In this document: piece after piece, positions 3,287-11,307 of the stretch | Position numbering within the stretch: the first letter of the stretch is position 1 | How the letters are laid out: the number at the start of each line of letters is the position of its first letter | Virus genome (UHGV): UHGV-0261880 | Reading direction: 5' to 3' (one strand) | Length of the DNA: 44,278 bases | From: a virus | The notes under the pieces: model-generated | Databases searched by the model: none | What the model saw: only the letters and a program-made list of their open reading frames with translations | Told to the model about the DNA's origin: nothing | Made by a program: the position numbers and the translations under genes

Positions 3287-3768
3287 ATTCGTGGAAACGT
3301 TGATTGCGCGGTTCCGTAGGCTTTAAGGAAACACCCCAGCCCGTCACCATAGCAACCATACAAATCGGGCAGATTGTTAACAAGGCACTGATTCTCGAGG
3401 TCCTGGAACGGCGATTTCTCAGCGGTTGCCGTGAAAGTAATTGTCCAGTTAATGCCATCTTCTGTGGACTCTGCGATGGTTGACGTGATAGTTACCTGAT
3501 AATCCTGTATGCCCATGCCGAAGTCGTGCGCCATCCAGAAACTTGACGCACCACCATCGACTTTCTCAAGGAACGACAGAAACGCCTGTCGTCCAAGCGC
3601 TGAGGTAATCAGGGTTACACTTATCGGGAACACGTCGTAATACGTGTCACGGCCCTGACGCACCCCGCCACCTGCTAAATCAACGCTCCAGACGTTGTTG
3701 CGTCTGGTCATTGAGTAGCCTTTCGATACCACCGGCTTAAGTCTACGTGGGAAATATAAGTCGCTCAT
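3268..3768 (-). CDS. Minor tail protein (M-like position)
   Basis: 166 aa ORF immediately downstream of tape measure (start abuts the tape-measure stop); call by synteny. Confidence 0.45.
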   Translation of the reverse strand: MSDLYFPRRLKPVVSKGYSMTRRNNVWSVDLAGGGVRQGRDTYYDVFPISVTLITSALGRQAFLSFLEKVDGGASSFWMAHDFGMGIQDYQVTITSTIAESTEDGINWTITFTATAEKSPFQDLENQCLVNNLPDLYGCYGDGLGCFLKAYGTAQSTFPRIWDPMQ

Positions 3769-6095
3769 TACTTGAACCCCGGCGCGTTTCTTGTGGCCTT
3801 GCGGGCCTTGCTAATCTTGCTGTTGCTGTTCTGCAAAGATGCGGCAACTTGCTCCTCGATGATAATACGCAGACGGCCTTCATCATCTTGCTCAGTGGAT
3901 ACGTTGCCGATTTGAGAACTCGTGTTGTTTACGATAGTAACATTAGATGGCCCGGAAGAAGACCCGTTTTGCCCCATAATTTCTTTCATCTGCTGTGCGG
4001 TGCGAACACGCGACGCACCAGCTGGCATGATAACTTCTGGTTTACCACGTTCTGCGATGGTGGAAGCCTGCCCAGCGGACAACTGACCGCCCTGCTCACG
4101 CGCCGAGCGGATTTTGGCGATATTAGCCAGCCCCGCGGCAACGGCAGTAGCCGCGGCAACCGGCGCCAGGAATGGGCCGACAACAGGGATGGCAGCCGTT
4201 GACTTATATGCCTCGATAGCTGATGTGTACGTGGCGATAGTTGCCTGCGCAATAGCAAACGCTTTATACGCGGTGGACGCCTCGCCAAATGCGGTTTTGG
4301 CATTAGCCGCCATGTCTCCGAAGGCATCTCCGGTGGCTTTGGCGCGCTTCATTGAATACTGCTCATCCAGGGCTAGGAGCGCCATCTGGTACTGTTCGGC
4401 GTTAATTATGCCGTCTGCCATGTATTTTGAGATGATATTCGCTTTTTGGGACTGTTGTATTTCCAGAAGCTCAAGCTCAGTAGCGTTCTGGCCCATAATC
4501 TGCGCCATGAAGTCGTCGCCTTTCTGCTGCTTTTCCTGGGCTTCTTTTCTTTTCTTATCCAGTTCTTCCTGTCGGGCCTGCTCGGCGGTGAGCATAATCT
4601 GCGTTTTGGCGTTTTCGTACTGCTGCTGGCTTATAGTTCCAGCGCGGTTGAACTCTTCAAGTTTCGCCAGTTTCTGCTCTTCTGCCGCTGTAATACGTGA
4701 AATTTCGTCTCCAGTTGTGCGGTCGACAGTAGCGAGGAAATCTTCCGCCGCTTTTTTCTGACGTTGTGCCGCCGTTTCTTCGCGTTTGGCTTGTGCCGCC
4801 AGGCGTTTCTCGTTCGATTTAGCCTCTCGGTCTGCCTTCGCTTTTTCGGTCGCGTCGATGCGAGCGATGTCCTGCTGCGCTTCCGTATCACGGGCGGCGT
4901 TATACGCGGCTATCTGTTCTTTGGTGACAGCTTCACGTTTAGCAAACGCCTGCTTATCCAGTTCAGCTTGCGCCCGGATGCGCTCACGGTCGCTTAAGAT
5001 GGCGATTTGCTGATTCTTGACGATAGCTTCGTTCTGTTCCTGGAACCTCTGCGTGGTTGAGTTAACGTTACGGCCGAGATTCTTTTGGGCCTCCGCCGCC
5101 GCGTTTGCCGACTTCTCCGCGTTCTCCAGTGCCGTGGCGTTCTTGTTGGCGTTGTCCGTCAGGCGGATAAGTTCCGGGTTCAACTGTTTTGTGTTACCGA
5201 GCCAGTCGGTAAACACATCGGCGATGCGACGGGCATTCTCGGCGGTTGGCTCTTTGTTAAACGCGCTCTGCGCCGCTATCATCTCCAGCGCCTGGTCACG
5301 GTTAACCCCGAACTTACTGCTAAGCTCTGCGATATTCTGCGCCAGCATGTTGACGCCTACGATGTTACCCTCGTAAGTGCCGCCGAGTTTTTCTAATGTG
5401 TCGCCTACATCCGCACCCTTAGAGACCAGTGCATCGTACTGGCTGATCGCCGACGCCGTGGAGGCTTTCCACGTTTCCCACGATTCAGCATCTTCACGAA
5501 CAGCTTTAGCGGTTTGCTGCGCGATAAGGTCCGCGTTAGCCTTAGCCAGGGCGAGTTGCGTTTCCGCGGCTTCGCGGCTAATTTGCGTAAGTTGAATAAG
5601 ACCGTCTGTCAGTTCGAGGGAGCCAGATGCCGTTTGCTGGAAAGTATCCTTTAACTGTTTCTGCGCGGCTTCGAGGTCTTTTGAACTACCTTCTGCTTCG
5701 GTTAGCGATTTGTACAGGACCCCGCCAACAGCCGACGCAAGAGCAATTACAGCCCCAAGCACCGCACCACCGGGGCCGAAAGCACCCGCAAGCTGCGAAC
5801 CTTGTTGCCCGATTGCTACGAATGCAGACGTACCGGATTGCAACTGGACTACCATGTCCTGCACCTGGAAGCCAACCTGCCCGGCAGCGTTACGGAACTT
5901 GGCAAAACCGTCGGACGCTGCTTTAGAGGTAGCGGAGTTTACTTTATTAACATCAGGCGTTAGTTTGTTTACTGCGGTATCCGCACGGTCTGCAGACGAT
6001 GCCATAGCGTCAAGCTGTTTGGCAGCTACGTCGGCACCTTCTGTTTTTACTCTGGCAATTAGGGAAGCCGTATCAGCCATCTTCTCTGCCCTCAA
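3768..6095 (-). CDS. Tail tape measure protein
   Basis: 775 aa, long Ala/Gln/Glu/Lys-rich coiled-coil-like middle, hydrophobic Gly/Ala-rich segments, position after G/T chaperones. Confidence 0.85.
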   Translation of the reverse strand: MRAEKMADTASLIARVKTEGADVAAKQLDAMASSADRADTAVNKLTPDVNKVNSATSKAASDGFAKFRNAAGQVGFQVQDMVVQLQSGTSAFVAIGQQGSQLAGAFGPGGAVLGAVIALASAVGGVLYKSLTEAEGSSKDLEAAQKQLKDTFQQTASGSLELTDGLIQLTQISREAAETQLALAKANADLIAQQTAKAVREDAESWETWKASTASAISQYDALVSKGADVGDTLEKLGGTYEGNIVGVNMLAQNIAELSSKFGVNRDQALEMIAAQSAFNKEPTAENARRIADVFTDWLGNTKQLNPELIRLTDNANKNATALENAEKSANAAAEAQKNLGRNVNSTTQRFQEQNEAIVKNQQIAILSDRERIRAQAELDKQAFAKREAVTKEQIAAYNAARDTEAQQDIARIDATEKAKADREAKSNEKRLAAQAKREETAAQRQKKAAEDFLATVDRTTGDEISRITAAEEQKLAKLEEFNRAGTISQQQYENAKTQIMLTAEQARQEELDKKRKEAQEKQQKGDDFMAQIMGQNATELELLEIQQSQKANIISKYMADGIINAEQYQMALLALDEQYSMKRAKATGDAFGDMAANAKTAFGEASTAYKAFAIAQATIATYTSAIEAYKSTAAIPVVGPFLAPVAAATAVAAGLANIAKIRSAREQGGQLSAGQASTIAERGKPEVIMPAGASRVRTAQQMKEIMGQNGSSSGPSNVTIVNNTSSQIGNVSTEQDDEGRLRIIIEEQVAASLQNSNSKISKARKATRNAPGFK

Positions 6096-6345
6096 ATATT
6101 CCGTCTAAGCCCATGATAACCTCGGCTTCGAACAAACTTATGCCGTAACCGGCGACATCACGAAACGCTACCAAATCTTGCCATTTGAGCGCATCGCGCG
6201 GGATTATAACGATAGTATCATCTGTTTCGCGCTGTAGGAATTTAATGGCACGGTATTTCTCGAACACGTCGATAAGAGAAACGGGGCATTCTGGCCCCGT
6301 CGTTTCTTTCATCTGCGGTTCTTTAATCACGCCCATTGCAATCAA
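6073..6345 (-). CDS. Tail assembly chaperone, frameshift-extension segment (T-like)
   Basis: Track ORF starts at a TTG; the same frame is open upstream across the stop of the 6435..6851 gene and is -1 relative to it. Confidence 0.45.
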   Translation of the reverse strand: MIAMGVIKEPQMKETTGPECPVSLIDVFEKYRAIKFLQRETDDTIVIIPRDALKWQDLVAFRDVAGYGISLFEAEVIMGLDGIFEGREDG

Positions 6346-6434: not shown

Positions 6435-6851
6435 TTACTTTTCCGAGAGTTTCTCGCGGCTATCGGTGTGGTGTTTAACTACGGCTTCTGCCAGTCCGCT
6501 GTACTGGTCTAACAGGTTAGCCAGCGCCTCTTTGCTGAACGGTTCATCAAATGACCAACCGGTGACGATTTCCACAGCAAGCTGCTTGTTCAGGTCCATC
6601 ACCCGCCAGCCCTTCTCATCGTTATAGCGCGCCCAGTTATTCAGCGCCTCGCACTCTTTATCTAATGGCGCAAGTTCTTCCGTAAGGCGTCGAATTGCCG
6701 TTGTGTAGGCGCGGCCCGCACGAACGCCAGCATCACAGTCCGGGCCAATGACCTGCAACCATTCGCCGGAGTCTTTACCACTCGGCAGAAGGATAGGCAT
6801 TTTAGTACCGGCGGCGTGGCGGTCGGCAAAATAGAAATCAGAAAGTTTCAT
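6435..6851 (-). CDS. Tail assembly chaperone (G-like)
   Basis: 138 aa, immediately upstream of tape measure and followed by an overlapping -1 frame ORF, the conserved G/GT arrangement. Confidence 0.55.
   Translation of the reverse strand: MKLSDFYFADRHAAGTKMPILLPSGKDSGEWLQVIGPDCDAGVRAGRAYTTAIRRLTEELAPLDKECEALNNWARYNDEKGWRVMDLNKQLAVEIVTGWSFDEPFSKEALANLLDQYSGLAEAVVKHHTDSREKLSEK
6436..6446 (-). other. Candidate -1 programmed ribosomal frameshift site (CGGAAAAG) at the 3' end of the G-like chaperone gene
   Basis: Zero frame reads ...CTC TCG GAA AAG TAA; -1 frame reads ...GGA AAA GTA AAA... and stays open into the 6073..6345 ORF; heptamer resembles but is not identical to lambda G GGA AAG. Confidence 0.4.
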
Positions 6852-6958
6852 TCTTTAATCCTTTGGTTAAGAGGTTACTGGTTAAGGTTGACGCGCCAGA
6901 CGGGAACCACCCGCTTTTCGTGTGCGACACTAGGCGCAAACTTATTCTAGCACACTAC

Positions 6959-6987
6959 TTGCACACCCCAATATAATAGGGTACTAT
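6959..6987 (+). promoter_or_regulatory. Sigma70-like promoter TTGCAC-N17-TACTAT with embedded palindrome AATAG-ggta-CTATT
   Basis: TTGCACaccccaatataatagggTACTATtca about 30 nt upstream of the 7016 start; near-identical copies at 16871 (+), 29274 (-), 28141 (-). Confidence 0.5.
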
Positions 6988-7015
6988 TCACCCGTAACTT
7001 ATTGAGGAAATAATT

Positions 7016-7342
7016 ATGCGTAAATCAGTATTAGCTCTAGGGTTTATGTCTTTTTCTACCTTTGGGTCCCCGTGCGAACAGGTATTTAGTGAATCTGTTC
7101 TTATTACCTCTGGTGTACTTGAGAAAGCCGACCCTACTATTGTAAAGGCGTTTAAGGACTCTACTGTTCGCGAGTGTGAGGCTGCCGTAGAGGTTGGTAA
7201 ATCGGGCCTGCCTCCGCAAGCCGTAACATACTCTGTAATACGTTCGGTAGAGAAAAACGGAGACGCGTTTTACAGCCTACTGACAGCCACCCGTCTGCAA
7301 ATGGTAATGACTGGATGGGCAATAGGCGCAGAAAGTAAATAG
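7016..7342 (+). CDS. Small secreted/periplasmic protein (signal peptide), opposite-strand insertion in tail module
   Basis: 108 aa; N-terminus MRKSVLALGFMSFSTFGSPCEQ is a signal peptide; own promoter; encoded antisense to the surrounding tail genes. Confidence 0.6.
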   Translation: MRKSVLALGFMSFSTFGSPCEQVFSESVLITSGVLEKADPTIVKAFKDSTVRECEAAVEVGKSGLPPQAVTYSVIRSVEKNGDAFYSLLTATRLQMVMTGWAIGAESK

Positions 7343-7407
7343 TCGCCTTTATTTAAGGGAATTCACTGTGGTTAAATAGGACAAATCTTAAACACGAGGA
7401 AGTAAGC

Positions 7408-8538
7408 ATGGCCAGGAAGAAAATAACTGACGAACAGTTGCAGGAAGAATTGAACGCCGGGATGAAGAACGTAGACATCGCCCGTAAATACGGCATCTCA
7501 GACCGCGTTATTCGTATCCGTAAAGCGAAGCTGGCTAAAAAAGGCGTAGGTCACGGGCGTGACGTTAGTTACCTTGTGCCAGATGGCTACAAGATTAAAG
7601 GAACGTCGTCACTTGTGGATGAGTTCGGCAACACTAAGTTGCAATGGGTTAAGACAGACACCGACGCCGAACGTCAGGTCGAGTTGATGAACGCCGTAAT
7701 CGAAGGCATGAAGTCAGAGATTACCCCCGTTGCGCCTGTTAAAGCCGCCCGCGCTAAACGAGACGATAAACTACTCAATCTTTACACGGTATCTGATTTC
7801 CATCTCGGCATGCTGGCATGGGCCGACGAGAGCGGCGACGACTGGGACATGAAAATCGCGGAAGACCTGTTTTCTCGCTGGTTCGACGCGGCGTTTCAGA
7901 AAGCACCGGATGCAGGAACAGGGGTTATTAATCTGCTTGGCGACCTCGCTCACTTCGATAGCCTGGACGCCGTTACACCGGCAAGCGGTCATGTTCTTGA
8001 CGCAGACACGCGCTATCAGAAACTTGTCCGCTACATGATTCGCATGGTCCGCCGTGTTGTCGATATGGCGCTGGTTAAGCATAAAAATGTTCGCTTGCTT
8101 ATCGTACAAGGGAACCACGACGAGAGTGGCATGATTTGGTTGGCTGAGATGTTCAGTACGCTGTATGACAATGAGCCGCGTGTGTTCGTCGATACGTCGC
8201 CGGATGTTTACAAGATGGTCCAGCACGGCAAAACGACGCTGTTCTTTACGCACGGGCATAAATGCCGGTTTGAGGTGGTCGAACCCATTATGATAGCTAA
8301 GTTCAGAAAAGCATTTGGCGAAAGCGAGTACAGTTACGCACATGTCGGGCATCTCCACCATCAAAAGATTGTAGAAAGTAGGAATATGGTAGTGGAACAA
8401 CATCGCACTCTCGCGGCGAAAGATGCATATGCTTCCCGCGGTGGGTGGATGTCTGGCCGTAGTGCAAATGTAATTACTTATAGCGCCGAATATGGCGAAG
8501 TCGCACGTTTAACTATTTCACCGGAGATGCTGGGATGA
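7408..8538 (+). CDS. Calcineurin-like metallophosphoesterase with N-terminal HTH-like domain (SbcD/Mre11-like or phosphatase)
   Basis: 376 aa; motifs SDFHLG, GDLAHFD, GNHDE, HGH, GHLHH match the metallophosphoesterase signature; N-terminal ~50 aa DIARKYGISDRVIRIRK looks like HTH. Confidence 0.75.
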   Translation: MARKKITDEQLQEELNAGMKNVDIARKYGISDRVIRIRKAKLAKKGVGHGRDVSYLVPDGYKIKGTSSLVDEFGNTKLQWVKTDTDAERQVELMNAVIEGMKSEITPVAPVKAARAKRDDKLLNLYTVSDFHLGMLAWADESGDDWDMKIAEDLFSRWFDAAFQKAPDAGTGVINLLGDLAHFDSLDAVTPASGHVLDADTRYQKLVRYMIRMVRRVVDMALVKHKNVRLLIVQGNHDESGMIWLAEMFSTLYDNEPRVFVDTSPDVYKMVQHGKTTLFFTHGHKCRFEVVEPIMIAKFRKAFGESEYSYAHVGHLHHQKIVESRNMVVEQHRTLAAKDAYASRGGWMSGRSANVITYSAEYGEVARLTISPEMLG

Positions 8539-9023
8539 AAGATATTGTGATTTTCGATTTAGACGGGACATTAGCTGATGGTACACACCGTTTACACCTG
8601 CTGCCGAAAGATAACTACAACGAAACATGGGCGTGGAAGCCTTTTAACATGGCCTGTAAAGATGATGCGCCGATATATGACAACATTCACTTGTGCAACA
8701 CGCTGTGGCATACCGGGATGACCGTAATTATCCTTACCGGGCGCAGTGATGATGCCGAGGGTGAGACTCGTAAATGGTTGCGAGAAAATAACGTTAAGTT
8801 TGACACGCTGATAATGCGCAGCAAACACGACAACAGAAAAGACATCGTAATTAAAGAAGAGGTGTTGCTCGCCATCGGGCTGGAGAGAATCTTGTGTGCG
8901 TTCGATGACTCGCCAGCGGTAATTAAGCATTTCCGCGCCCTCGGTCTGACCACACACGCGGTTACTGAATACGACTGTAACGGGAACTCTACACACTTAA
9001 AATCACACGGGAGCGATAAATAA
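8535..9023 (+). CDS. HAD-superfamily phosphatase, resembling the 3'-phosphatase domain of T4 polynucleotide kinase
   Basis: 162 aa; N-terminal nucleophile motif IFDLDGTLA; ILTGRSD, TRKWL and RKDIVIKEEV segments align by eye with my recollection of T4 Pnk C-terminal domain; start overlaps upstream stop. Confidence 0.7.
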   Translation: MKDIVIFDLDGTLADGTHRLHLLPKDNYNETWAWKPFNMACKDDAPIYDNIHLCNTLWHTGMTVIILTGRSDDAEGETRKWLRENNVKFDTLIMRSKHDNRKDIVIKEEVLLAIGLERILCAFDDSPAVIKHFRALGLTTHAVTEYDCNGNSTHLKSHGSDK

Positions 9024-9577
9024 TGGCTAAGGTAATTATTCTTAATGGCCCTGCGGGTTGCGGGAAAGACACGCTTGCTATGGCGCTGGTAGAAATGGGC
9101 TTTGCGAAAGGAACTACCAGTTTCAAGAATCCAATGTTCAATATTGCTTTGGCAGCGTTAGGCCCGGATGCTTACCACGAATTTCTCGACGGCTACGACG
9201 ACCGGGCGCGGAAAGAAAAGCCAGAGGGTTTTCTCAATGGGTTGTCCCGTCGTCAGTTCATGATTGCCATTTCTGAGCAATTCATTAAACCGGTATTCGG
9301 TGATGATTATTTCGGTAAGTATCTCGCTGAAAACTTGCCTGACGGCGACGAAGTTTTTGTAGTGTCCGACGGTGGATTCGCCAGTGAAGTTGCCCCTATC
9401 GTCGCCGCGGGGCATGACGTGCGAATCGTCCGCCTCCATCGTGACGGCTATACGTTCATCGGCGATAGCCGGGAGTATCTGTACGATGTTAGTGGTGTAA
9501 AAGATTACGACACCTACATCATACAGGGTGACGTTAAATCGAACGTTATAGACATTGCTTTAAAATTAGGTTTGTAA
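9023..9577 (+). CDS. P-loop nucleotide kinase, dNMP-kinase-like (T4 gp1 family)
   Basis: 184 aa; Walker A GPAGCGKDT at residues 9-17; overall pattern resembles T4 gene 1 dNMP kinase from memory; translationally coupled to the HAD gene. Confidence 0.65.
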   Translation: MAKVIILNGPAGCGKDTLAMALVEMGFAKGTTSFKNPMFNIALAALGPDAYHEFLDGYDDRARKEKPEGFLNGLSRRQFMIAISEQFIKPVFGDDYFGKYLAENLPDGDEVFVVSDGGFASEVAPIVAAGHDVRIVRLHRDGYTFIGDSREYLYDVSGVKDYDTYIIQGDVKSNVIDIALKLGL

Positions 9578-9601
9578 GAAAAAGGCCCCGAAAGGGGCCT
9601 T
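9576..9601. terminator. Stem-loop AAGGCCCC-GAAA-GGGGCCTT with flanking A/T run (efficient mainly for minus-strand readthrough)
   Basis: 8-bp GC-rich stem; on the minus strand it is followed by TTTTTC; lies just after the kinase stop. Confidence 0.5.
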
Positions 9602-9614
9602 ATCACAGTAGGAG

Positions 9615-10109
9615 ATGATTATGGATTGGAATGAATTTTTCATATACGATTTAATTTCAGGAAGGATATTTAACAGAGTAACCCGGTCCGGGAGGGCTAA
9701 GGCTGGAGAGGAAGCAGGTACTGTCCAGCGAGACGGATATAGAAGGATATTTTTCCGTGGTAAATGGCATGCGGCGCACCGTATAGCTTGGGACTTAAAC
9801 AATCCTAACGATAAGCTAACCTCGTCAGATCAAATAGACCATCTAGACCATGACCGAATAAACAATAGACCGCTTAACTTAGCTAAAAAGTCCAATGCGG
9901 AAAACCATAAAAATATGTCAAAACAGCGTAATAATAAATCAGGAGTAACCGGAGTTTACTGGAATGCGAAAGAAAGGTTGTGGTACGCACAGATATTCAA
10001 CAATAACGTAAAAACACATATCGGGTGCTTTAAGACGCTACTAGATGCAGTTGCCGCGAGGAGAGTTGCTGAAAGAGATTTGGGGTTCCACGAGAACCAC
10101 GGTAAATAG
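9615..10109 (+). CDS. HNH homing endonuclease with C-terminal AP2-type DNA-binding domain
   Basis: 164 aa; HNH core HAAHRIAW...DHLDHDRINNR; C-terminal SGVTGVYWNAKERLWYAQI...GCFKTLLDAVAARRVAE is AP2-like; AT-rich relative to neighbours. Confidence 0.8.
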   Translation: MIMDWNEFFIYDLISGRIFNRVTRSGRAKAGEEAGTVQRDGYRRIFFRGKWHAAHRIAWDLNNPNDKLTSSDQIDHLDHDRINNRPLNLAKKSNAENHKNMSKQRNNKSGVTGVYWNAKERLWYAQIFNNNVKTHIGCFKTLLDAVAARRVAERDLGFHENHGK

Positions 10110-10110
10110 T

Positions 10111-10137
10111 AAGGCCCCTTTCGGGGCCTTTTCCTTA
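10111..10137 (+). terminator. Rho-independent terminator AAGGCCCC-TTTC-GGGGCCTT + TTTCCTT
   Basis: Exact reverse complement of the 9582 hairpin, placed immediately after the HNH stop; U-tract on plus strand. Confidence 0.55.
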
Positions 10138-11307
10138 CGCGTAGCTAATACGCTGTATTACAATAGAAGATTGATATTGATTGCCTGTGGACTGTCCTTC
10201 TATGCTCTGAGTGATTGACTCAGGTCCGCCAATCTCTGGCGTAACCGCCGTAAGCTCTGCGCGTTTCAAACTGAAAGACATAGCCCCGTTTACCCCCGCC
10301 AGAATAGAGTTAATCTCTACCTGCTGCTCGTTGATAAACTTCTGAATCATCGCCATGTCGTATAGCTTGCCGGAGATGGAGAAGGTGTTTGCCGCGCGGC
10401 TACGTTCCACAAACGCTACGTTAGTGTTGCCGAGTTCGAACTGCGCGGATGCGCTGTTATCGTTGGTGATGGTCAGACTATCACAACGCAACGGCGTAGA
10501 ACCGTCGAACACAGACACATCTACAGACGAGAACGGCTCGTCACCAAACGTGACAGAGGAGAAATCAGAACCAGACGGCGGCTCGGTGAGAATCTCCTGA
10601 CTGCGACCGATGAACGGGAAGCTACCTGTAACCATCGCGTTAACCGCCTGCTCAACGGTAAAACCTGAAACTTCCACGCCTTTAGTCAACGTGTACGCGT
10701 CAGTCCCGCCGCACTGGCCTTTGTACCAGGTAAGAATAGAGAACGTCTTACACTGACTACCAGTCTCCAGCTTATCCCCGGTCTTAGCAGCGGTAGTAAC
10801 AGTCTCTGCGGTCAGAGTGTGCTGGATACCCGTACCAGTGACAACAGTCGCACTTATTTCGGTTACGATAAACGGTTTGGCGTTATCGCCCGTTAAGTCG
10901 GTGAACGCAATCAGGTCGCCTACTTCAACGCCGTCGGTAATAAAGCTACCGGTGGAGCGTGTAAAGGTCTTGCCAGCCGGTGCGACGGTAATCGACAGCC
11001 CTGACAGCGAGACACCTGATTGCCACGTAGAGCCTAAAGCACCTGCCAGCCAGTCATCCTGGCTACGCGAGCTAAGTTCGATAGCGTATTCACCGCTAAC
11101 CTGTTTGTTACCGGTGCGGATGGACGTAGTTTCACGGCTGCCGTCCAGTTCATTGGAGGTCAGCGTGTCTCGGGTAATAGCGGGAACACCGCCAGTGTTA
11201 CGCAACGGCGACCAGACAGGGTTGTCTGGGGTCACGCCCGGGGTAACTTCCGCCACATAGAATTGCGCGGTATTCGCGCCCTTAAAAGGAGTTGTAGCCA
11301 TACTCAC
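10135..11307 (-). CDS. Major tail (tube) protein
   Basis: 390 aa Thr/Ser/Gly-rich beta-type protein, last gene of the head-tail operon before the chaperone pair; call by synteny. Confidence 0.55.
   Translation of the reverse strand: MSMATTPFKGANTAQFYVAEVTPGVTPDNPVWSPLRNTGGVPAITRDTLTSNELDGSRETTSIRTGNKQVSGEYAIELSSRSQDDWLAGALGSTWQSGVSLSGLSITVAPAGKTFTRSTGSFITDGVEVGDLIAFTDLTGDNAKPFIVTEISATVVTGTGIQHTLTAETVTTAAKTGDKLETGSQCKTFSILTWYKGQCGGTDAYTLTKGVEVSGFTVEQAVNAMVTGSFPFIGRSQEILTEPPSGSDFSSVTFGDEPFSSVDVSVFDGSTPLRCDSLTITNDNSASAQFELGNTNVAFVERSRAANTFSISGKLYDMAMIQKFINEQQVEINSILAGVNGAMSFSLKRAELTAVTPEIGGPESITQSIEGQSTGNQYQSSIVIQRISYA

Follow-up and report, generated by a model that had tools for sequence, protein, structure and literature searches.

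Superinfection exclusion by the virulent phage T4 involves Sp (spackle), a small periplasmic protein of helical structure that is synthesised with a signal peptide. Cor, from phages T1, phi80 and N15, blocks the protein receptor FhuA, and the gene for Llp adjoins the receptor-binding gene in T5. Llp likewise blocks FhuA (PMC9586334). T4 Imm is included in protein family phrog_1039 (PMC9409062), and Ltp of Streptococcus phage TP-J34 is described as a surface lipoprotein that blocks DNA injection via the tape measure protein (PMC3952083).

The window analysed here is the whole 44,278-nt stretch of the UHGV virus genome UHGV-0261880. It carries a gene for a 108-aa protein that resembles none of the characterised exclusion proteins Cor, Llp, Sp, Imm and Ltp, either in sequence or in fold. 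Our tentative reading is that this protein is an envelope-level superinfection-exclusion factor. It would most likely act on genome entry because it is interchangeable with an Imm-type protein of sister phages; the slot that the two genes share demonstrates interchangeability, not equal function.

The gene, its cassette and its promoter

DNA comparison places this E. coli phage in Kagunavirus (subfamily Guernseyvirinae). The 2.2-kb region around the gene was ~92% identical to Escherichia phages K1H, G AB-2017 and CR01 and to other Kagunavirus genomes, and gave weaker matches to Salmonella Jerseyvirus phages. The features of the region are:

6435..6851, minus strand: tail assembly chaperone gene (phrog_15027, E 8.4e-66; PF08748), divergent from the ORF at 7016-7342
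6959..6987, plus strand: putative sigma-70 promoter, TTGCAC (6959-6964), 17-nt spacer, TACTAT (6982-6987), from sequence and positional conservation
6993..7375, plus strand: exchangeable segment (5' UTR, ORF and ~30 nt), from the alignment of the window, K1ind2 and K1H
7004..7008, plus strand: Shine-Dalgarno GAGGA, 7 nt before the ATG, read from sequence
7016..7342, plus strand: ORF encoding a 108-aa member of phrog_14165, predicted to be exported, ATG start, TAG stop
7016..7066, plus strand: predicted Sec signal peptide, residues 1-17 (MRKSVLALGFMSFSTFG), likely cleavage TFG↓SP, from rule-based features
7067..7339, plus strand: mature domain, 91 aa, five helices, from the AF2 model and invariant columns
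7408-8538, plus strand: metallophosphoesterase/DNA-repair exonuclease (PHROG/Pfam, K1H annotation)
8535-9023, plus strand: HAD polynucleotide-kinase-type phosphatase (PHROG/Pfam, K1H annotation)
9023-9577, plus strand: dNMP-kinase-like P-loop protein (PHROG/Pfam, K1H annotation)
9615-10109, plus strand: HNH endonuclease (PHROG/Pfam hits)
10112..10138, plus strand: terminator-like hairpin AAGGCCCCTTTCGGGGCCTT followed by TTCCTTA, closing the cassette, read from sequence
10135..11307, minus strand: tail tube (major tail) gene (K1H annotation; PF18906 on homologues; phmmer hits across loci)

The ORF at 7016-7342 is a real, constrained gene, because median pairwise dN/dS was 0.057 among 11 Kagunavirus alleles, the product matches phrog_14165, and homologues reach down to ~20% identity. 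Purifying selection was strong in the window's own allele as well, with dN/dS of 0.05-0.13 in the pairs that include it. The original prediction of a 108-aa ORF was therefore borne out.

The gene overlaps no tail gene. It opens a 3.1-kb plus-strand cassette (7016-10109) that interrupts the minus-strand tail module and separates the chaperone gene from the tube gene. It had been described as lying antisense within the tail module; the opposite strand was confirmed, but overlap with tail genes was not, and the gene does not stand alone, as nucleic-acid-metabolism genes follow it. The content of the cassette downstream (7408-10109) varies among relatives.

Two details of the flanks bear on neighbouring genes. 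The terminator hairpin (10112-10131) has an inverted copy at 9582-9601, the pair flanking the HNH gene at 9615-10109; both are GC-rich, AAGGCCCC(GAAA/TTTC)GGGGCCTT, with loops inverted between the two positions. In K1H, where a mere ~30 nt separate the kinase-like gene from the tail tube gene, no HNH gene is present at this point. The two flanking hairpin copies, together with the absence of the HNH gene from K1H, suggest insertion of a homing endonuclease at or in a bidirectional terminator, which was duplicated in the process. Beyond the opposite end of the cassette, the chaperone gene (6435-6851) and the short minus-strand ORF downstream of it (6073-6345) correspond to the two-piece 'joined' chaperone CDS of K1H; a programmed frameshift of this layout is usual ahead of the tape measure gene, here at 3768-6095.

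The promoter originally proposed for the gene, TTGCAC-N17-TACTAT, is present as described. It is weak by consensus (7 of 12 sigma-70 positions), and a consensus scan at ≥9 of 12 positions did not list it, the regional sites being no more numerous than in shuffled sequence. Its position, however, is conserved: TTGCNN-N16/17-TAnnnT was kept in 17 of 20 divergent relatives at equal distance from the chaperone start codon in the intergenic alignment, compared with a control in which 30% of shuffled sequences matched somewhere, at any position. For this putative promoter, conserved position is better evidence than consensus. A perfect TATAAT at 6972-6977 was considered as the -10 box and rejected, being unconserved in Jersey-type phages and having no usable -35.

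On the minus strand at 6945-6972, TTGGGG-N16-TAGAAT may be a divergent promoter of the chaperone operon, its -35 interleaved with that of the plus-strand promoter. Overlapping back-to-back promoters of this kind could make the chaperone and plus-strand units mutually exclusive. The TAGAAT, which recurs in several relatives, is 7-8 nt before a conserved structured element at ~6876-6940 on the minus strand, directly upstream of the chaperone gene. The element comprises three helices, an outer helix around two hairpins, and 14 of its 16 base pairs showed compensatory changes among 15 relatives; the covariation score was 0.53, against 0.18 for shuffles and ~0.1 for slid controls, and ~ten G-U cells point to the minus strand, that of the chaperone gene. 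Over the full model of Rfam int-alpA (RF02996), which it resembles, the element scores 30.3 bits (E 4.7e-5), below the gathering score of 35.8; a search of seven related loci for int-alpA gave no match at E≤0.01. A covariance model built from the element found exactly one copy before the chaperone gene in 21 loci, including phages without the cassette. Since the single copy always precedes the chaperone gene, with or without the cassette, this comparison assigns the element to the chaperone/tape-measure leader, separate from the ORF at 7016-7342. In the chaperone/tape-measure mRNA it may act as a leader, or serve processing or regulation.

Predicted export, fold and family

A rule-based check of the window protein found an n-region MRK (+2), an h-region spanning residues 4-16 and small residues at -3/-1 (TFG↓SP). 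The same features (charged n-region, hydrophobic core, small -3/-1) were present in 59/59 family members checked, in agreement with the signal peptide of the original prediction; the h-region of the window allele was the weakest of the set (KD 1.9). Many members have canonical signal-peptidase-I sites (SFA↓HPCE, ALA↓SPCE, AEA↓VSC), and 15/59 have a PROSITE-type lipobox (..[LI]GC↓SYVG) with the cysteine at residue 17, followed by a short linker and the conserved domain. Several known exclusion proteins are lipid-anchored, as is predicted for this part of the phrog_14165 family. The window protein itself has no lipobox, its first cysteine being preceded by G-S-P.

The N-terminal segment varies in sequence across the family yet remains hydrophobic, and AF2 gave pLDDT <50 for residues 1-12 of the window protein. 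The mature domain was modelled as a compact helical bundle (pLDDT 90.9, pTM 0.81) and has no transmembrane segment. It opens with the invariant cysteine C20, and C20, C54, G64, W101 and G104 were invariant in 29/29 aligned sequences; the C-terminal motif is GWAIGAE. A charged N-terminus, a drifting hydrophobic segment and invariant cysteines are what would be expected of an exported, disulphide-bonded protein. Export is likely because the N-terminal features occur in all 59 members, 15 of these have lipoboxes, the cysteines are invariant and the helical domain is free of transmembrane segments. The Sec pathway would deliver the protein to the periplasm with removal of ~17 residues, leaving a 91-residue five-helix domain that probably contains one disulphide, C20-C54.

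Along its full length the window protein belongs to phrog_14165, a PHROG of unknown function (E 1.4e-53, residues 1-108 against profile positions 1-109). This was its only PHROG match at E≤0.01, and there was none to Cor (phrog_1119). Three large searches (one word-indexed, one an exhaustive HMMER run over 1.84 billion representatives and one a further profile search) returned ~40 to 67 clusters, all of 108-123 aa and without protein names. Every family hit in two protein-database searches was on a contig of ≤46 kb, the largest (~40-46 kb) being phage-genome-sized, and no bacterial-chromosome member was among the hits. As far as the searches reached, the family thus seems to be confined to the Guernseyvirinae-type phage lineage.

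Other resources gave little to name the protein by. Pfam, NCBIfam and PADLOC had no meaningful match for it or its relatives, the window protein and 13 relatives had no Pfam match (PF14373 included), a PDB sequence search with the family profile found no match, and known defence and anti-defence families did not match the 108-aa protein. The K1H homologue, ORF18 (gp20), is annotated as a hypothetical protein, and a literature search found no paper discussing the phrog_14165 family.

Several database entries were set aside. The homologues in PV696613.1, PQ571306.1 and OQ660438.1 carry the labels 'glycoprotein precursor' (two records) and 'DUF3718 domain-containing protein' (one, from phage S4lw); the first label has nothing to support it and is not reproduced by Pfam or PHROG, and the second has no Pfam support at E≤10. 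A family-profile match to P0029, a 744-aa repeat protein, was spurious, involving ~40 profile positions on a repeated VLKTSGDLNATD-like stretch. Three places in PP935706.1 (Salmonella phage vB_SE130_2P, 164,642 bp) match the 108-aa protein; at ~4x the size of a Jerseyvirus genome, this record looks like a concatenated or mixed assembly.

Related phages also have a branch of 120-aa proteins, predicted to be secreted and with two cysteines, in which the motif is GYAFGE as opposed to GWAIGAE. Direct profile-profile comparison of the 108-aa and 120-aa branches gave a probability of 8.8%, whereas one sequence (L032) matched the profiles of both (hhalign 99.5%). Because of this bridging sequence and the corresponding C-terminal motifs, the 120-aa branch is, on sequence grounds, part of the same superfamily, for which phrog_14165 is too narrow.

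A slot shared with an Imm-type gene

The slot between the tube and chaperone genes was surveyed in 49 related viral contigs and in reference genomes, anchored on the chaperone gene. The gap was 80-135 nt in relatives without an insert. A gap of 290-580 nt corresponded to exactly one opposite-strand gene for a predicted envelope protein, whether superfamily member, lipoprotein or membrane protein. It was 3283 nt in the window, where DNA-metabolism genes follow the first gene, and what lay beyond the first slot gene in the remaining relatives was variable: DNA-metabolism genes, homing endonucleases or small ORFs. A phrog_14165-family gene, in every relative in which it was found, was the first opposite-strand gene beside the chaperone, while the rest of the insert varied or was absent; it was the sole insert between the tube and chaperone genes in five loci (L036, L038, L039, L041 and L049).

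The predicted envelope-protein gene is thus the constant element of the slot. Its behaviour is that of a classical moron under a promoter of its own, because the promoter is positionally conserved and the insertion separates structural genes that are contiguous in relatives. Some relatives have an empty slot, and the function is therefore dispensable. The phage lineage would, on our reading, reserve this slot for small envelope-targeted accessory proteins, and the ORF at 7016-7342 would be transcribed from its own conserved sigma-70-type promoter in the direction opposite to the tail genes.

What else occupies the slot gives the strongest indication of function. In Salmonella phage SETP3 the occupant is a 59-aa protein that matches PF14373 (Imm_superinfect) at 56.7 bits (E 2.3e-15; cut-off 27.9) and also phrog_1039, the family that includes T4 Imm. 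The Kagunavirus K1ind2 has a 63-aa Imm-type gene exactly where the ORF at 7016-7342 sits, with, as in the window, the chaperone gene at one flank and genes for an exonuclease, a kinase and an ATP-binding protein at the opposite flank. The window and K1ind2 are near-identical through the -35 and -10 boxes, the promoter that precedes the K1ind2 Imm-type gene being identical to that of the window; the identity ends a few bases past the -10, at ~6993, and resumes at ~7376, at ATAGGACAAATC, ~30 nt before the exonuclease start. On this alignment the exchange is limited to the 5' UTR and ORF, and both alleles share the promoter. The Imm-type role in Kagunavirus and Jerseyvirus is itself predicted from the family match.

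The Imm type was found in ~350 phage records and the phrog_14165 family in ~100, with no accession common to the two among the matches listed. Nor did any locus or complete genome examined hold both genes.

Further occupants were seen in distant relatives (L059 747-1001, L061 3845-4099, L067 1283-1552 and L043 959-1165). They include unrelated lipoproteins of 84-89 aa with the lipobox LSGC or LAGC (MKLLIIAAAVALSGC.., ..CLAGC..) and no informative family match, and a 68-aa single-helix membrane protein that belongs to phrog_5031, of unknown function. These lipoproteins and the membrane protein are further candidate exclusion proteins.

Proposed function, alternatives and known systems

The reading that we tentatively favour is that the 108-aa protein, made in the infected cell, would stop the DNA of related phages from crossing the periplasm or inner membrane, a role equal to that of the T4 Imm-type membrane protein in the identical slot of sister phages. 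The original prediction had also raised superinfection exclusion, and that part gains from the presence of an Imm-type PF14373 gene in the same slot behind the same promoter; the likeness to Cor and Llp that it drew is not upheld, as there is no match in sequence or fold and no lipobox in the window protein. Structure prediction with a fold search, among the checks suggested at the time and here run against the PDB, gave a confident AF2 model and no match to Cor or Llp.

Alleles 94% identical to the window protein occur in K1-capsule phages (the K1H, K1G group) and in O16-dependent phages of the BASEL collection, whose dependence on the O16 O-antigen is documented (PMC11990801). Because near-identical alleles occur across phages with different glycan receptors, the target of the protein is probably not the variable surface glycan. 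This point and the lipid anchoring predicted for part of the family both fit the exclusion reading.

Several points count against exclusion: the 108-aa protein resembles no characterised exclusion protein, its h-region is the weakest of the family, the function is dispensable, and the timing of expression is not as expected. Early expression would be expected from the example of T4 imm and sp and of T5 llp. The only Kagunavirus transcriptome, that of K1B4, places the Imm-type gene among the last-peaking genes, in time classes that are coarse and that put DNA polymerase in the late class as well (PMC12645636). The late timing of the Imm-type gene speaks against the exclusion reading, and the coarseness of the classes tempers the objection.

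The alternative that survives best, though we consider it doubtful, is some other form of periplasmic host manipulation or counter-defence, in which the protein would inhibit a protease, a nuclease, an envelope-stress sensor or an envelope defence to the benefit of the phage producing it rather than against rivals. An inhibitor could well have such export signals and a compact helical domain of binding type, and a dispensable gene in a variable slot is typical of accessory genes. However, the lack of a match to known defence or anti-defence families argues against this, a protein made after infection cannot guard the producing genome during its own entry, and the only slot alternative of recognisable family is a superinfection-immunity protein.

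A receptor blocker of the Cor or Llp type, an exported protein that inactivates an outer-membrane protein and so prevents further adsorption and loss of progeny on debris, is unlikely and ranks below exclusion at the level of entry. Predicted export and a place within the tail module, like that of llp beside the T5 receptor-binding gene, would fit such a protein. About a quarter of the family are predicted lipoproteins with Ser at +2, which under the +2 rule of the E. coli Lol system implies sorting to the outer membrane. Against this stand the lack of similarity to Cor (phrog_1119) or Llp in sequence or fold and the absence of a lipobox from the window allele. Guernseyvirinae, moreover, depend on O-antigen or capsule via their tailspikes, with no outer-membrane protein receptor reported (PMC11990801), and the protein is 94% conserved between phages that use different glycan receptors.

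It is still less probable that the protein modulates the timing of lysis or lysis from without, tuning a holin, endolysin or spanin or protecting the wall in the manner of T4 RI and spackle. It recalls RI and Sp in its size, its helical periplasmic domain and an N-terminus that is Gly/Ser-rich and weakly hydrophobic. The gene, however, lies at a distance from the lysis genes (located elsewhere in SETP3), there is no PHROG or Pfam match to the RI or Sp families, and a signal-anchor-release mechanism does not suit those members of the family that are anchored as lipoproteins. That the protein is not exported at all, its N-terminus being a buried segment or membrane anchor and its function lying with the downstream DNA-metabolism enzymes, is very improbable: the h-region of the window allele is short and weak and the gene is apparently co-transcribed with nucleic-acid enzymes, but every member keeps the n-region, hydrophobic core and small -3/-1 residues despite sequence drift, the family has 15 lipoboxes, many canonical AXA sites and two invariant cysteines, and the downstream enzymes are absent from many relatives that retain the gene.

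Returning to exclusion at the level of genome entry, a broader form of the proposal is possible. The 108-aa protein may be the founding member of an unrecognised family of periplasmic or lipoprotein exclusion factors, and the tube/chaperone junction a dedicated site for the exchange of exclusion genes. Such a family, in virulent siphophages that depend on glycans, would block genome entry by binding either a conserved factor of the envelope or a tail component of the incoming phage; at least four unrelated exclusion genes would have been swapped under one promoter, namely the phrog_14165 family, the Imm type, the small lipoproteins and the one-helix membrane protein.

Kagunavirus and Jerseyvirus are common isolates in work on phage therapy and biocontrol against E. 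coli and Salmonella, and an exclusion gene decides whether the phages of a cocktail interfere with one another. We know of no secondary receptor or entry factor for the glycan-dependent siphophages of the Guernseyvirinae; a block to genome entry, if confirmed, would give a handle on how these phages cross the periplasm. The tube/chaperone junction would then also be useful for discovering further exclusion proteins by position alone.

Among known systems, the T4 Imm type (PF14373, phrog_1039; SETP3 gp23 and K1ind2 gp22) shares the slot, promoter and transcription unit in sister phages. Both it and the 108-aa protein are small products of virulent phages that are predicted to be envelope-targeted. 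They are not homologous, the 108-aa protein failing to match PF14373, and they differ in build: the Imm type has ~60 aa, nearly all in hydrophobic membrane segments, whereas the 108-aa protein is predicted to combine a signal peptide that is cleaved off with a soluble helical domain of 91 aa. T4 Sp resembles the 108-aa protein in overall design, with no PHROG or PDB sequence match and no place among the structural matches listed.

Llp of T5 and Cor of T1, phi80 and N15 (phrog_1119) are exported accessory proteins encoded in or beside tail genes, and part of the phrog_14165 family is, in addition, predicted to be lipoprotein. PDB searches found no structural match between either and the 108-aa protein, and their target is FhuA, whereas the Guernseyvirinae have no known protein receptor. 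Ltp, which has no sequence match to the 108-aa protein, acts through the tape measure protein, and the ORF at 7016-7342 adjoins the chaperone and tape-measure genes; unlike the virulent phage studied here, the phage that encodes Ltp is a temperate phage of Gram-positive bacteria, and Ltp is expressed from the prophage. If the proposed function is right, the phrog_14165 family, so far catalogued only as an unknown PHROG, would be a non-homologous addition to these exclusion proteins.
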